From the UHGV virus genome UHGV-0105671: a DNA stretch of 15,173 bases; one strand, given 5' to 3'. A program made the position numbers and the translations under genes. The notes beneath the pieces are model-generated. The model made no database searches, was not told the DNA's origin, and worked only from the letters and a program-made list of their open reading frames with translations. This document shows positions 11,162-15,020 of this stretch, piece by piece; the stretch's first letter is position 1; every line of letters begins with the position of its first letter. Source of the DNA: a virus.

Positions 11162-11524
11162 ATGGCTAGCGAACGCAGTACTGATGTGCAGGCATTTATC
11201 GGGGAGCTGGACGGCGGCGTATTTGAAACCAAAATCGGCGCTGTTCTCAGTGAAGTCGCTTCAGGTGTGATGAACACGAAAACCAAAGGGAAGGTCTCGC
11301 TCAACCTGGAAATCGAACCGTTTGATGAGAACCGTGTGAAAATAAAACACAAACTCTCATATGTTCGTCCGACTAACCGCGGGAAAATTTCCGAAGAAGA
11401 CACCACCGAAACGCCGATGTATGTCAATCGCGGTGGTCGCCTGACTATTCTGCAGGAAGACCAGGGACAATTACTGACTCTTGCCGGTGAACCTGACGGA
11501 AAACTCCGCGCAGCAGGTCATTAA
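11162..11524 (+). CDS. yfdP: YfdP-like hypothetical protein (120 aa), first gene of the early-left-type operon
   Basis: GGAG Shine-Dalgarno 8 nt upstream of ATG 11162; 120 aa matches the recalled size of CPS-53 YfdP, and it is followed by YfdQ/YfdR-sized genes. Symbol from recalled gene order and sizes only. Confidence 0.5.
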   Translation: MASERSTDVQAFIGELDGGVFETKIGAVLSEVASGVMNTKTKGKVSLNLEIEPFDENRVKIKHKLSYVRPTNRGKISEEDTTETPMYVNRGGRLTILQEDQGQLLTLAGEPDGKLRAAGH

Positions 11525-11589
11525 TATCGTTCTTAATTAACTGATTATTTATCTCATCACTGAATATCTTTATATAGTGAGGACTTATT

Positions 11590-12414
11590 ATGTCTCAGAA
11601 CTTAGACGCAACCGCAATTAATCAAATCCATGCCCTTATTTCTGCTCAGGGTGTTAATGAAATTATCAGTAAGATTGGTGCCGATGCTGTGGCATTGCCT
11701 GAGAATTTCCGCATTCATGATCTGGAAAAATTTAATTTAAATCGCTTCCGTTTCCGTGGTGCGCTTTCCACTGCCAGCATCGATGACTTTACCCGTTATT
11801 CTAAAGATCTTGCAGATGAAGGCACCCGCTGCTTTATCGACGCCGATAATATGCGTGCCGTCAGTGTACTTAACCTGGGTACTATCGATGAACCAGGTCA
11901 CGCAGATAACACCGCCACTCTCAAACTGAAAAAGACAGCACCGTTCTCTGCCCTGTTGTCTGTTAACGGCGAGCGTAACTCCCAGAAGTCACTGGCAGAA
12001 TGGATTGAAGACTGGGCCGACTACCTTGTGGGCTTTGATGCTAATGGTGACGCTATTCAGGCAACAAAAGCGGCTGCGGCTGTCCGTAAAATCACGATTG
12101 AAGCAAACCAGACCGCTGATTTTGAAGATAATGACTTCAGCGGCAAACGCTCCCTGATGGAGTCAGTCGAAGCGAAGACCAAAGACATTATGCCAGTGGC
12201 ATTTGAATTTAAATGCGTTCCGTTTGAAGGCCTGAAAGAACGTCCGTTTAAATTACGCCTCAGCATTATCACTGGCGATCGTCCTGTACTGGTTCTGCGC
12301 ATTATTCAGCTGGAAGCGGTGCAGGAAGAAATGGCTAACGAATTTCGTGATCTGCTTGTTGAGAAATTCAAAGACAGCAAAGTCGAAACCTTTATTGGTA
12401 CTTTCACCGCCTGA
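11590..12414 (+). CDS. yfdQ: YfdQ-like protein (DUF2303 family), function unknown
   Basis: 274 aa, the recalled size of K-12 YfdQ; GTGAGGA Shine-Dalgarno; position between YfdP- and YfdR-like genes. Confidence 0.6.
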
Positions 12415-12427
12415 TTTCATTACTGCA

Positions 12428-12449
12428 AATGCCCCTGCGGGGGCATTTA
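12428..12449 (+). terminator. Terminator-like hairpin between the yfdQ-like and yfdR-like genes (possible attenuator)
   Basis: Perfect 9-bp stem AAATGCCCC-TGC-GGGGCATTT immediately after the yfdQ-like stop; the 3' flank is only weakly U-rich. Confidence 0.35.
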
Positions 12450-12541
12450 TGGAAACGTAATTTACTCAATAATCGCCGGATGGTGAGGGATTCTTTTTAC
12501 CAGAATTCAGCGCGGTGCAGCGCATATACGTGGAGAACAAA

Positions 12542-13078
12542 ATGTCATTTATTAAAACTTTTTCCGGGAAGCATTTTTATTATGACAAGATAAATAAAGA
12601 CGACATCGTGATTAACGATATCGCAGTTTCCCTCTCAAATATCTGTCGCTTTGCAGGGCATCTTTCACACTTCTACAGCGTCGCCCAACATGCGGTTCTT
12701 TGCAGCCAGCTGGTGCCGCAGGAATTTGCTTTTGAAGCGTTAATGCATGATGCAACAGAAGCATATTGCCAGGACATCCCCGCGCCACTGAAACGACTTC
12801 TTCCTGACTATAAACGGATGGAAGAAAAAATAGACGCCGTAATCCGTGAGAAATACGGGTTACCTCCTGTTATGAGCACGCCAGTGAAATATGCCGATCT
12901 CATCATGCTGGCAACCGAACGCCGCGATCTCGGGCTTGATGATGGCTCTTTCTGGCCTGTACTGGAAGGCATCCCGGCAACAGAGATGTTCAAAGTTATT
13001 CCACTGTCACCAGGCCATGCCTACGGGATGTTTATGGAACGTTTTAACGAGTTATCGGAATTACGCAAATGTGCATAA
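12542..13078 (+). CDS. yfdR: HD-domain phosphohydrolase, YfdR-like 5'-deoxynucleotidase
   Basis: 178 aa from ATG 12542 (GGAG Shine-Dalgarno 7 nt upstream); contains H...HD metal-binding signature (…VAQHAV… and …LMHDATEAY…). Size equals recalled K-12 YfdR. Confidence 0.7.
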   Translation: MSFIKTFSGKHFYYDKINKDDIVINDIAVSLSNICRFAGHLSHFYSVAQHAVLCSQLVPQEFAFEALMHDATEAYCQDIPAPLKRLLPDYKRMEEKIDAVIREKYGLPPVMSTPVKYADLIMLATERRDLGLDDGSFWPVLEGIPATEMFKVIPLSPGHAYGMFMERFNELSELRKCA

Positions 13079-13947
13079 CTCATGTAGTTAGTTTTTCTGG
13101 CGGGAGAACATCTGCATATCTTGTTCACCTGATGGAAGAACAAAGAAAGACTGGAAATAACGTCTGCTACATCTTTATGGATACCGGTTGCGAACATCCG
13201 CTGACATACCGCTTTATTCGGGAGGTTGTGAAGTTCTGGGGCATACCGCTAACTGTGTTGCAGGTCGATATAAATCCAGAGCTTGGGCAGCCAAATGGTT
13301 ATACGGAATGGGAACCAAAGGATATTCAGACACGAATGCCGGTGCTTAAACCGTTTATGGACATGGTAAAAAAATATGGCACGCCATACATCGGCGGCGC
13401 GTTCTGCACTGACAGATTAAAACTCACCCCCTTCACAAAATACTGCGATGACCATTTCGGACGAGGGAATTACATCACATGGCTGGGTATTCGTGCAGAC
13501 GAACCTCGTAGGCTGAAACCGAAATCGGGCGTCCGGTATCTTGCCGAGCTATCTGATTTTGATAAGTCGGATGTTATCCGGTGGTGGCATAAACAACCTT
13601 TTGATTTGCAAATCCCGGAGCACCTCGGGAACTGTGTTTTCTGCATCAAAAAGTCCACGCAAAAGCTGGGGCTTGCATGTAAAGACGAACCTGGTCTGAT
13701 GCGAGTTTTTAATGAGCTGGTTACAGGTAAACACGTCCGGGATGGTCACCGAAAGACAAATAAAGACGTTATGTACCGTGGTCATCTGAGCCTTGACGGG
13801 ATTGCCAGAATGTATGCCGACAGCGACTACAGAAATTTGTATCAGGCGATGGTGCAAGCCAGGCGATTCGATACCGGCTCGTGTTCAGAGTCATGTGAAA
13901 TCTGGGGTGATCAATTGGAATTGAAATTCGAAGAGGTGGTGGCATGA
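13069..13947 (+). CDS. PAPS-reductase-like PP-loop ATP pyrophosphatase family protein
   Basis: N-terminal VVSFSGGRTS is a PP-loop (SGGxDS-type) motif; 292 aa. Start overlaps the yfdR-like stop by 10 nt. Confidence 0.65.
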   Translation: MCITHVVSFSGGRTSAYLVHLMEEQRKTGNNVCYIFMDTGCEHPLTYRFIREVVKFWGIPLTVLQVDINPELGQPNGYTEWEPKDIQTRMPVLKPFMDMVKKYGTPYIGGAFCTDRLKLTPFTKYCDDHFGRGNYITWLGIRADEPRRLKPKSGVRYLAELSDFDKSDVIRWWHKQPFDLQIPEHLGNCVFCIKKSTQKLGLACKDEPGLMRVFNELVTGKHVRDGHRKTNKDVMYRGHLSLDGIARMYADSDYRNLYQAMVQARRFDTGSCSESCEIWGDQLELKFEEVVA

Positions 13948-14147
13948 CAATCGTAAAAACCCATACCGGCATTGTGATCACCAAAGACGGCCCGCAGGTA
14001 AAAAAACTTCACCAGACAGAGCGGATGTGGGTCGTCGGCAAAAACGAGTTTTACCACAAAGAAACCGGACGCCGCCACTTTGCAGAAAATACGCGCCGCC
14101 GACTACTGATCGACACCATCAAGCCTATCGAGGTGAAGCATGTTTAA
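13944..14147 (+). CDS. Hypothetical small protein (67 aa)
   Basis: ATGA overlap with upstream stop; GAGGTGG Shine-Dalgarno; basic composition. Confidence 0.4.
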   Translation: MTIVKTHTGIVITKDGPQVKKLHQTERMWVVGKNEFYHKETGRRHFAENTRRRLLIDTIKPIEVKHV

Positions 14148-14379
14148 ACAGAACGAAAAATCTATCGCTCAAATTGCTGAGTATATCCCGCGTGCGTGCC
14201 GGGGTATGCAGTTGCAGGAAGCCAAAGCGCGCCTGGAGAAAAAAATTGCGCTCTATATCGATGACGGCTGTGATGCTGCCGTTCTTAACGCAGCGTTCGC
14301 GCCAGCTCTTAACAGTCATACGCGGGAGTCTTTTTTTTCGCGCATCGCAGCGCAGATCCGCAAAGGAGGCAGCCAGTGA
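14140..14379 (+). CDS. Hypothetical small protein (79 aa)
   Basis: AGGTGA Shine-Dalgarno 4 nt upstream; 8-nt overlap with the upstream gene. Confidence 0.4.
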   Translation: MFKQNEKSIAQIAEYIPRACRGMQLQEAKARLEKKIALYIDDGCDAAVLNAAFAPALNSHTRESFFSRIAAQIRKGGSQ

Positions 14380-15020
14380 GTAACCGTTTTTACATGATGT
14401 GCTCGCGTGAAACTGTGGGTAATAACGCTTCATTCCATTGCCATAACGGCAATGGTTACAGTTCTGATATCGATCGCGCTCATGTTTACACGCTGGAAGA
14501 AGCCCAAAAAGCCTGGAATTGTGGGCGAGATATAGATCAGCCTGTTTGTGCCGATAGTGTGGATACAATGGCAGTGTGGCACGTTGATTGCCAGTACATC
14601 CCTACAGAAAACCTGATTGAGCCAGATTGCACTGCGTATGTGGCCTACAAAAAAGGTAGCTGGAACAGCAACGATGTTTACTGGCTTCAACACGGTGGAT
14701 TGCCAACAGATGACTTCAGTAAAGCGACCATCTTTAGCGTCGCCAACAAAAACGAACCAGGAATAGTTTGGTTGCCATTTTCCATTGCTGATGCAGCAAA
14801 GCGCCGGACGTTCAATATCAATAACTTTAACCGCAGAACAATGGTTCAGGGCGCAGGTTTGGTCATGCCTGACTGGTTGAAAGAGCAGAACAGAAGAAAG
14901 AAGTCGCGAAGCGGGAAGGTGCGTTGGAATTGTCCGCATTGCGGAAAAATAACCTGGCAGTACAGCCCATATGATTTTGAAGGCTGTAGTGATTACAACT
15001 GTGAAGGATGGCGAGAATGA
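14376..15020 (+). CDS. Hypothetical Cys/His-rich protein with C-terminal zinc-ribbon-like motif (214 aa)
   Basis: GTG start with strong AAAGGAGG Shine-Dalgarno 6 nt upstream; C-terminus NCPHCGKITWQYSPYDFEGCSDYNCEGW plus additional Cys/His pairs (HCHNGNG, CADS...HVDC). Confidence 0.5.
   Translation: MSNRFYMMCSRETVGNNASFHCHNGNGYSSDIDRAHVYTLEEAQKAWNCGRDIDQPVCADSVDTMAVWHVDCQYIPTENLIEPDCTAYVAYKKGSWNSNDVYWLQHGGLPTDDFSKATIFSVANKNEPGIVWLPFSIADAAKRRTFNINNFNRRTMVQGAGLVMPDWLKEQNRRKKSRSGKVRWNCPHCGKITWQYSPYDFEGCSDYNCEGWRE

Follow-up and report, generated by a model that had tools for sequence, protein, structure and literature searches.

The interval at positions 11162–15020 of virus genome UHGV-0105671, within a stretch of 15,173 nt which we refer to as the window, carries seven accessory genes, and the closest described systems lie in the CPS-53 prophage of Escherichia coli K-12, in the nin region of phage lambda and in phages of Vibrio. 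From CPS-53, yfdQ-yfdR-yfdS-yfdT was isolated as a multicopy suppressor of hda-185, and YfdR binds domain I of DnaA at Phe46, where it competes with DiaA and DnaB (Noguchi & Katayama 2016, PMC4776307). Multicopy yfdQ and yfdR together with either yfdS or yfdT block initiation at oriC, extracts inhibit oriC replication in vitro, and YfdR itself is a weak 5'-deoxynucleotidase whose affinity for nucleotides is far below that of YfbR (PMC4776307). A 2025 survey of lambdoid phages found a yfdP/yfdQ/yfbR-like cluster to be common in early-left operons, including those of phages without a recombination (Rec) module, and listed no known function for YfdP and YfdQ (PMC12315714). In Vibrio crassostreae, p0018 and p0019 are the sole genes specific to phages infecting a clade that carries Dnd and a retron, and a sensitive phage into which both were recombined grew on a Dnd-positive, retron-deleted host (bioRxiv 10.1101/2021.05.05.442762; this work of Piel et al. 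is also published as Nat Microbiol 2022). A 2026 paper cites p0018 as a phage PAPS (3'-phosphoadenosine-5'-phosphosulfate) reductase promoting evasion of Dnd, and reports that genes for such reductases are clustered in variable parts of phage genomes rich in anti-defence genes (PMC13551039). We put at roughly 55% the probability that the UHGV-0105671 interval is the promoter-proximal pL operon of a CPS-53/ST64B-type lambdoid prophage, a mosaic of exchangeable accessory cassettes and not one system.

The genes of this operon are already known, as yfdPQR of CPS-53 and NinC of lambda; the original prediction, made from the letters of the window, had taken the seven as one undescribed and functionally uncharacterised module, a real observation over-interpreted as a system. 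The K-12 block is only in part uncharacterised, given the published binding of DnaA by YfdR, the multicopy block of initiation and a relative of YfdQ in the PDB, and the PP-loop gene, in which the prediction had not recognised NinC, is 78% identical to it. What stands is the gene set and its setting. The open-reading frame (ORF) listing and family scans confirm seven + strand genes at the positions predicted: yfdP (11162–11524), yfdQ (11590–12414), yfdR (12542–13078, with an alternative in-frame GTG start at 12515), the NinC ortholog (13069–13947), and three small genes which we call orf67 (13944–14147), orf79 (14140–14379) and orf214 (14376–15020). Each of the seven falls into a separate PHROG family; yfdR is labelled 'dNMP phosphatase' and the PP-loop gene 'PAPS reductase', and the remaining five are listed as function unknown. 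In near-identical prophages of E. coli these genes carry RefSeq annotations, under the names yfdP, yfdQ, yfdR and 'PAPS reductase family protein'.

The placement of these accessory genes in the early-left slot of a lambdoid prophage is likewise supported. A cI/LexA-like repressor gene (9453–10079) lies upstream of the leader of yfdP, and just 3' of it a consensus scan alone places a pL-like sigma-70 promoter on the + strand (TTGCCA-17-TAGATT, 10133–10161), a position which agrees with the repressor-leader-yfdP order of related prophages. Downstream, the operon runs beyond the end of the window into the start of an ead/Ea22-like gene (15017–15173, + strand, recognised from its translation and cut by the window end), annotated likewise in the near-identical locus L001, and in related prophages an exonuclease, Ea22/DUF551, xis and int follow the same genes on the 3' side. 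Translational coupling of all seven genes, as had been predicted, did not hold: only the last four junctions, from yfdR through orf214, overlap (−10, −4, −8 and −4 nt), whilst 65 nt separate yfdP from yfdQ and 127 nt separate yfdQ from yfdR.

To follow which of these genes travel together we sampled roughly 160 loci in two censuses, the first made up of 80 IMG/VR contigs of E. coli with essentially identical YfdQ, the second of 75 loci from different species and phages with enough flanking DNA, in which NinC was sought within 6 kb. Among the E. coli contigs yfdP, yfdQ and yfdR occurred together in 77, whilst NinC was present in 8, orf67 in 17, orf79 in 11 and orf214 in 2, and a single contig held all seven genes, so that a check of gene-neighbourhood conservation returned no single conserved module. 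The usual followers of yfdR in these contigs were instead the K-12-type genes yfdS (54) and yfdT (37). Across species YfdP stood directly 5' of YfdQ in 73 of the 75 loci and YfdR came after YfdQ in 54 (about 72%), yet NinC was near in only one, phage ArgO145, where YfdR was not detectable.

The DNA itself breaks at the same place. CPS-53 has the same yfdP-yfdQ-yfdR order and spacing as the window, with 97% DNA identity over 11143–13076, but this homology ends at the yfdR stop, and lambda-like ninC homology starts at 13082; judged from this switch the yfdR stop is a mosaic recombination junction. In K-12 the end of yfdR overlaps yfdS by −10 nt, equal to the yfdR-NinC junction of the window, and is followed by yfdS and yfdT, whereas the window continues with NinC, orf67, orf79 and orf214. 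K-12 YfdS is a DUF551 protein, distinct from the PP-loop protein. Elsewhere relatives of NinC stand on their own: lambda has its copy in the nin region, Vibrio phage K71 has one between the terminase and portal genes, and Chi-like Salmonella phages carry one too. In Vibrio podophages the relatives form a fusion with Dam. Because NinC is rare near yfdPQR, homology breaks at the yfdR stop and NinC stands alone in other contexts, the adjacency of the HD-domain and PP-loop genes is a local accident of recombination.

The same counts largely refute the reading with which the interval was first presented, that the seven genes form one nucleotide-modification, DNA-modification or counter-defence system in which the HD and PP-loop enzymes serve one pathway (for example, that of a modified or signalling nucleotide). 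The genes do lie on one strand, yfdR through orf214 are coupled by overlaps, and both enzymes have nucleotide-chemistry folds; moreover, some E. coli prophages share the order yfdR-NinC-orf67-orf79, and Shiga toxin (Stx) phages have a related run of NinC, orf67 and orf79. However, a functional pairing of the two enzymes is hard to reconcile with their co-occurrence in 8 of 80 and 1 of 75 loci, with an ArgO145 that has NinC and no detectable YfdR, and with the many contexts in which NinC is found by itself. Furthermore, neither the HD protein nor the other five proteins beside NinC had a match in PADLOC, and no evidence was found for the link to nucleotide-signalling immunity that had been proposed. 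We consider the one-pathway explanation very unlikely. Current views are not overturned by this; the correction is that adjacency within a mosaic operon had been given too much weight. The counts also set a conserved core, yfdP-yfdQ with yfdR as its usual third member, apart from the interchangeable morons, and so show which genes are worth studying together.

The first cassette of the mosaic is yfdP-yfdQ-yfdR, and within it YfdP and YfdQ form an almost invariant pair, from enteric phages to those of Vibrio and Xanthomonas. The window proteins are 99.2% (YfdP) and 99.3% (YfdQ) identical to those of CPS-53. YfdQ (274 aa) is a single-domain member of DUF2303 (PF10065: 309.7 bits against a cut-off of 26.6, residues 7–272, E 2e-92), a family that falls into about 1,825 clusters at 50% identity and whose members are uniform in length. 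YfdP (120 aa, phrog_204 at 1e-49) had no Pfam match and no PDB match, even by profile search, and its homologs stand directly 5' of YfdQ in phiNP, ArgO145, Vibrio phage 34E29.1 and Xanthomonas phage Tabio (phmmer 1e-44 to 4.5e-20). The neighbours of the pair in three of these phages are recombination and replication genes: the order is Gam-RecT-Exo-SSB-YfdP-YfdQ in ArgO145; ERF, YqaJ/RecE exonuclease, DnaQ-like exonuclease, YfdP, YfdQ, SSB in 34E29.1; and YfdP-YfdQ ... ERF ... YqaJ-SSB in Tabio. Of 84 loci, 27 encode an Rv2179c-like 3'-5' exonuclease at a distance of up to 6 kb. Because the two proteins are always adjacent and lie in or next to modules of single-strand annealing protein (SSAP), exonuclease and SSB in distant phages, YfdP and YfdQ may act as an obligate pair on the DNA-metabolism machinery.

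A relative of YfdQ has been solved, as PDB entry 9o7m ('YfdQ Protein', E 1.2e-44), which contains 36 chains of one sequence from a Xanthomonas phage of CP2/Tabio type, 98.8% identical to MET23-P3. The 36 chains hint that YfdQ might form a large assembly, although a full-text search found no paper describing the entry. Searches of recent literature under 'YfdQ' and 'DUF2303' returned nothing relevant. A YfdP homolog was sought by profile in 9o7m, and the 471-aa protein downstream of YfdQ in Tabio was also searched, with no PDB match. As a side observation, the Vibrio 34E29.1 locus (L085) encodes at 6712–7221 a protein with a Tad2-like (Thoeris anti-defence 2) domain (PF11195, 4e-22), the third gene 3' of YfdQ, past SSB and a small ORF; by this domain match, a known type of anti-defence gene adjoins the yfdPQ pair in that phage.

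The context of YfdPQ could also mean that YfdP-YfdQ, with or without YfdR, is mainly an accessory of Rec modules in recombination, repair or replication restart (a mediator, an end-binding protein or an annealing-related oligomer), and that inhibition of DnaA is a side effect of overexpression. In three phage groups unrelated to one another the pair has genes for an SSAP, an exonuclease and SSB as neighbours; it fills the Rec slot in lambdoid phages without a Rec module, and no Rec genes were among the ORFs of the window. The many chains of 9o7m and the conserved Arg-rich RFRFRG and PGHADN motifs would suit such a role, and deletion of yfdQ is reported to sensitise cells to methyl methanesulfonate and H2O2 (PMC4776307). 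Casjens and co-workers, on the other hand, deem a recombination role unlikely, as the cluster co-occurs with complete Rec modules (PMC12315714). Fold searches gave no similarity to Redβ, RecT, ERF or Rad52. We also considered YfdQ as a hidden SSAP and set this aside as the main explanation; it is unlikely to be an annealing protein itself because classical SSAPs such as ERF and RecT are encoded alongside it. A mainly recombinational role is in our view somewhat doubtful, and given both the Rec-module context and the DnaA data YfdP-YfdQ is best read as a host-takeover or DNA-metabolism accessory. On the mosaic reading the first cassette would, in lytic growth, either shut down initiation on the host chromosome or divert replication and recombination factors to the phage.

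The DnaA data concern YfdR, which in the window is 178 aa long and 98.3% identical to the K-12 protein (phrog_318 at 2e-111). It belongs to the HD-domain phosphohydrolase superfamily, with the HD motif present in the translation (H40, H69-D70, D78; Pfam HD_3 at 0.006) and a match to the HD protein of PDB 2gz4 at 1.8e-13. RefSeq names its product '5'-deoxynucleotidase'; it shares the HD fold and motif with YfbR, but scores under the cut-offs of that family (PF12917, 24.2 against 25.9 bits; NF003009, 19.8 against 122 bits), and its documented activity, unlike that of YfbR, is binding of DnaA. In principle YfdR resembles lambda P, SirA of Bacillus subtilis and Dps, which are also small DnaA-binding proteins that lower initiation, although none has a sequence relationship to it; lambda P binds domain III of DnaA, whilst SirA and YfdR both rely on the Phe46/49 patch of domain I (PMC4776307).

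By transfer from the K-12 protein, the window YfdR would be expected to bind DnaA domain I and inhibit oriC. Several points weigh against a takeover role of this kind. The effect on initiation was obtained only from multicopy plasmids, initiation was unaffected when yfdQRST was deleted, and an artefact of overexpression is a possibility that the authors themselves raise; furthermore, YfdQ, YfdS and YfdT showed no tight binding to YfdR or DnaA (PMC4776307). K-12 YfdS and YfdT, one of which is needed for the block, had no tblastn match anywhere in the window, which therefore holds yfdQ and yfdR of the CPS-53 initiation-inhibiting set and lacks its remaining members.

It is also conceivable that the block is kept mainly for stress tolerance of the lysogen and not for lytic growth. 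Papers citing Wang et al. 2010 report that deletion of CPS-53, yfdQ or yfdS raises sensitivity to H2O2 or acid; the block persists in the degraded K-12 prophage, and of 5426 complete E. coli genomes 3632 gave a megablast match to at least part of 10100–15173. However, an early promoter under repressor control and a terminator-like leader precede the genes, and the same pair occurs in virulent-looking phages of Vibrio and Xanthomonas, which makes a benefit confined mainly to lysogens quite unlikely as the explanation.

The second cassette is a relocated NinC. The window protein (292 aa) aligns with lambda NinC (Orf290) over 290 of 292 aa without gaps at 78% identity, and is thus its full-length ortholog; a tblastn search of phage genomes likewise led to genes annotated 'NinC' and to nin-region contexts. 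The two share all invariant motifs and are both non-essential accessory genes, but lambda ninC sits early-right, between ninB and ninD of the nin region, whereas the window copy sits early-left, overlapping the end of yfdR, and the genes 3' of it are unrelated to lambda ninD-H. In 30 relatives the PP-loop S10-G-G-R-T/S-S15, a D-T-G-x-E-H motif and the cysteines C113, C126, C189xxC192 and C272x3C276 are invariant or nearly so; these cysteines may bind an Fe-S cluster or a metal. The AlphaFold (AF2) model has a predicted local distance difference test score of 85.6, with the Cys-bearing tail (266–292) disordered. The nearest solved folds in Foldseek are CysH and APS (adenosine-5'-phosphosulfate) reductase (E about 5e-5, template modelling score 0.34–0.5), followed by CysD, LarE, GMP synthetase, MnmA, NcsA and TtuA, which together with the motif places the protein in the PP-loop ATP pyrophosphatase superfamily.

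Within that superfamily an assimilatory PAPS/APS reductase is not what the protein looks like. CysH enzymes have their catalytic Cys at the C-terminus, within the motif ECG[LI]H; the NinC ortholog ends in GSCSESCE and not in ECGLH. Its PF01507 match (4e-9) covers residues 5–72 only, it scores 20.2 against 154 bits for the CysH equivalog NF002537, and we take its SGGRTS motif to be of the ATP-pyrophosphatase rather than the CysH type. That NinC is an enzyme of tRNA thiolation, some other adenylating enzyme or an auxiliary metabolic gene of sulfur assimilation, and not a counter-defence gene, draws on the same Foldseek list, in which MnmA, NcsA and TtuA are tRNA sulfurtransferases and LarE also appears, on the PHROG category 'moron, auxiliary metabolic gene' and on a cysteine pattern which would resemble that of Fe-S PP-loop thiolases. 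Against it stand the poor CysH scores and motif just given, the fact that the best match to a defence family is SspD, and the fusion of relatives to a DNA adenine methylase, which points to DNA as the substrate. We regard the metabolic explanation as unlikely.

The evidence for counter-defence comes from the Vibrio phages. The 479-aa PAPS-Dam fusion of Vibrio phage 44E38.1 (p0018) shares 55% identity with the window protein over 96% of the NinC query. The p0018 protein of Vibrio phage 75E35.1 has identical architecture, and its homologous PAPS domain aligns with NinC at 55.5% over 283 aa (E 9e-110); the PP-loop and Cys motifs agree, and like NinC the protein is encoded by an accessory gene in a variable region. 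In PADLOC the NinC ortholog is matched best by SspD (1.4e-15, residues 5–150), then by BrxP (1e-4) and DndC (8e-4). DndC, SspD and BrxP (the last of BREX type 4) have an N-terminal PP-loop half and the superfamily fold in common with NinC, but the matches span only about half of the profiles, DndC and BrxP are much longer proteins, and the window holds no Dnd, Ssp or BREX partners. Because of the 55%-identical Vibrio relative and the similarity to SspD and DndC, a role against phosphorothioate defence is plausible, and stand-alone NinC can be named as a candidate anti-Dnd or phosphorothioate counter-defence gene. This part of the original prediction, the PP-loop protein as a credible candidate for anti-defence or DNA modification, has gained support, although among the seven genes an anti-defence role is plausible for NinC only. 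On the mosaic reading this cassette would shield phage DNA from phosphorothioate-based (Dnd/Ssp-type) restriction, and to that end it could either install or mimic the sulfur mark or disturb the DndC/SspD step of the host.

This role of NinC has its own counterweights. Lambda NinC is dispensable and no interaction partner of it has been detected, we know of no report of an unusual modification of lambda DNA, and among the papers searched none links NinC, lambda and PAPS. The window protein ends after the PAPS domain, whereas p0018 carries a C-terminal Dam domain and has p0019 as its neighbour; p0019 (DUF6475) has no homolog in the window, which thus lacks both further parts of the Vibrio anti-Dnd determinant. 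Neither the window ORFs nor PADLOC on the seven proteins gave DndA/D/E or SspA/B/C partners beside NinC, and the SspD-like half-match alone does not amount to a Dnd/Ssp phosphorothioation cluster. In the Vibrio experiment, furthermore, the two genes were moved jointly and PAPS was fused to Dam, and the contribution of the PAPS domain was therefore not isolated (bioRxiv 10.1101/2021.05.05.442762). Even so, the identity of NinC and the link to the Vibrio anti-Dnd genes open a direct, cheap functional test of a classical lambda gene that has been an orphan for 40 years. A Dam-type N6-adenine methyltransferase gene lies elsewhere in the window (5067–5753, − strand), in the nin-equivalent region about 7 kb from NinC, and the Dam domain of the Vibrio fusion protein matches it at 5142–5693 with 28% identity; by these similarities the prophage appears to carry both halves of the fusion as separate, distant genes.

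Upstream of yfdP the operon has a conserved, structured leader. The 350 nt 5' of yfdP fold far better than shuffled sequences (z = −5.2). Positions 10812–11027 on the + strand resemble STnc100 over the full model (Rfam RF02076, E 2.1e-7), with a cmscan score of 42.4 bits that stays under the gathering threshold of 47, as do the scores of 11 related loci. A terminator-like hairpin ends this match on the same strand, with a 12-bp stem (10978–10989/11007–11018) followed by CUUUUU to 11024, and its stem shows compensatory variation across the alignment. Directly after it, at 11027–11111 (+ strand) and about 50 nt 5' of the yfdP start, lies a conserved RNA of about 85 nt in which a 16-bp outer helix encloses two inner hairpins. 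Between genera its DNA keeps about 85–95% identity, although the flanking proteins share only about 60%. RNAalifold on 15 genera or phages gave 29 pairs, 10 of them with compensatory changes, and 97.9% of cells were paired, compared with 40–55% in slid controls; none of 500 shuffles reached the observed covariation, and the U-G pairs are consistent with the + strand alone. Nothing in Rfam matched 11027–11111 at E ≤ 1, which makes this covarying RNA a concrete candidate regulator outside Rfam.

The leader of lambda N carries an RNase III site. By analogy, the 11027–11111 RNA may control translation of yfdP or processing of the transcript, as a candidate cis-regulator or RNase III site, and expression of the cassettes would probably be gated by the terminator-like hairpin together with this RNA. 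Taken jointly, and offered as a tentative proposal, YfdP-YfdQ could be an undescribed, widely conserved module at the interface of replication initiation and phage recombination (its YfdQ, perhaps a very large homo-oligomer, having a fold for which the libraries searched contain no full-length solved relative), the enteric leader RNA an uncatalogued control of it, and NinC a stand-alone inhibitor or mimic of phosphorothioate-based immunity.

Further upstream in the leader, two short blocks keep 80–98% DNA identity across many genera, one (10177–10236) just 3' of the pL-like promoter and the other (10756–10800) in mid-leader. The stretch around the first (10165–10245) is conserved in sequence and shows no unusual RNA folding (z = −0.9), and the blocks could be operator, nut-like or coding sequence. 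Two leader ORFs overlap on opposite strands, 10244–10561 (+, phrog_3195 at 8e-70) and 10479–10724 (−, phrog_3311 at 1e-55); in the near-identical locus L170, RefSeq annotates only a + strand ORF for this stretch (3112–3387 in that locus).

The third cassette comprises orf67 (phrog_1226, 1e-42), orf79 (phrog_1344, 5e-52) and orf214 (phrog_2457, 5e-117), which would be orphan morons. None of the three has relatives in Pfam, NCBIfam, PADLOC or the PDB, or significant similarity to lambda ren or NinB-I, and orf67 is at times present without NinC in the E. coli loci that hold it. The zinc ribbon predicted for orf214 is backed by its relatives: the C-terminal Cys4 motif C186xxC189...C204x4C209 is invariant or nearly so in 18 of them, from a family of 136 clusters in which every one is named 'hypothetical'. 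A homolog of orf214 with 58% identity is present on the 92 kb Pantoea agglomerans plasmid CP134736.1 (5001–5645 of locus L172), surrounded by many small unannotated ORFs and just 3' of genes resembling umuD and umuC; this context hints weakly at a role in establishment or anti-defence.

The remainder of the window holds further features. Nine Chi sites (GCTGGTGG) occur in the 15 kb, all within 2901–8877, three on the + and six on the − strand, with none in 11162–15020; 0.68 would be expected, and none of 200 shuffles reached nine. This excess fits the Chi-rich 'no Rec module' class of lambdoid phages (PMC12315714). A + strand ORF of 380 aa at 812–1954 has, judged from its translation alone, a signal peptide and a porin-like sequence with resemblance to the OmpC/NmpC type of porin that lambdoid prophages carry. 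Two Rfam matches above their gathering thresholds, C4 antisense RNA (68.4 bits, 8021–8108) and isrK (60 bits, 8133–8209), lie on the − strand inside a − strand ORF (7421–8569) that RefSeq names a Rha family regulator; the same pair is found in locus L119, and by its sequence it indicates an immunity element of the P1/P7 c4-ant type.

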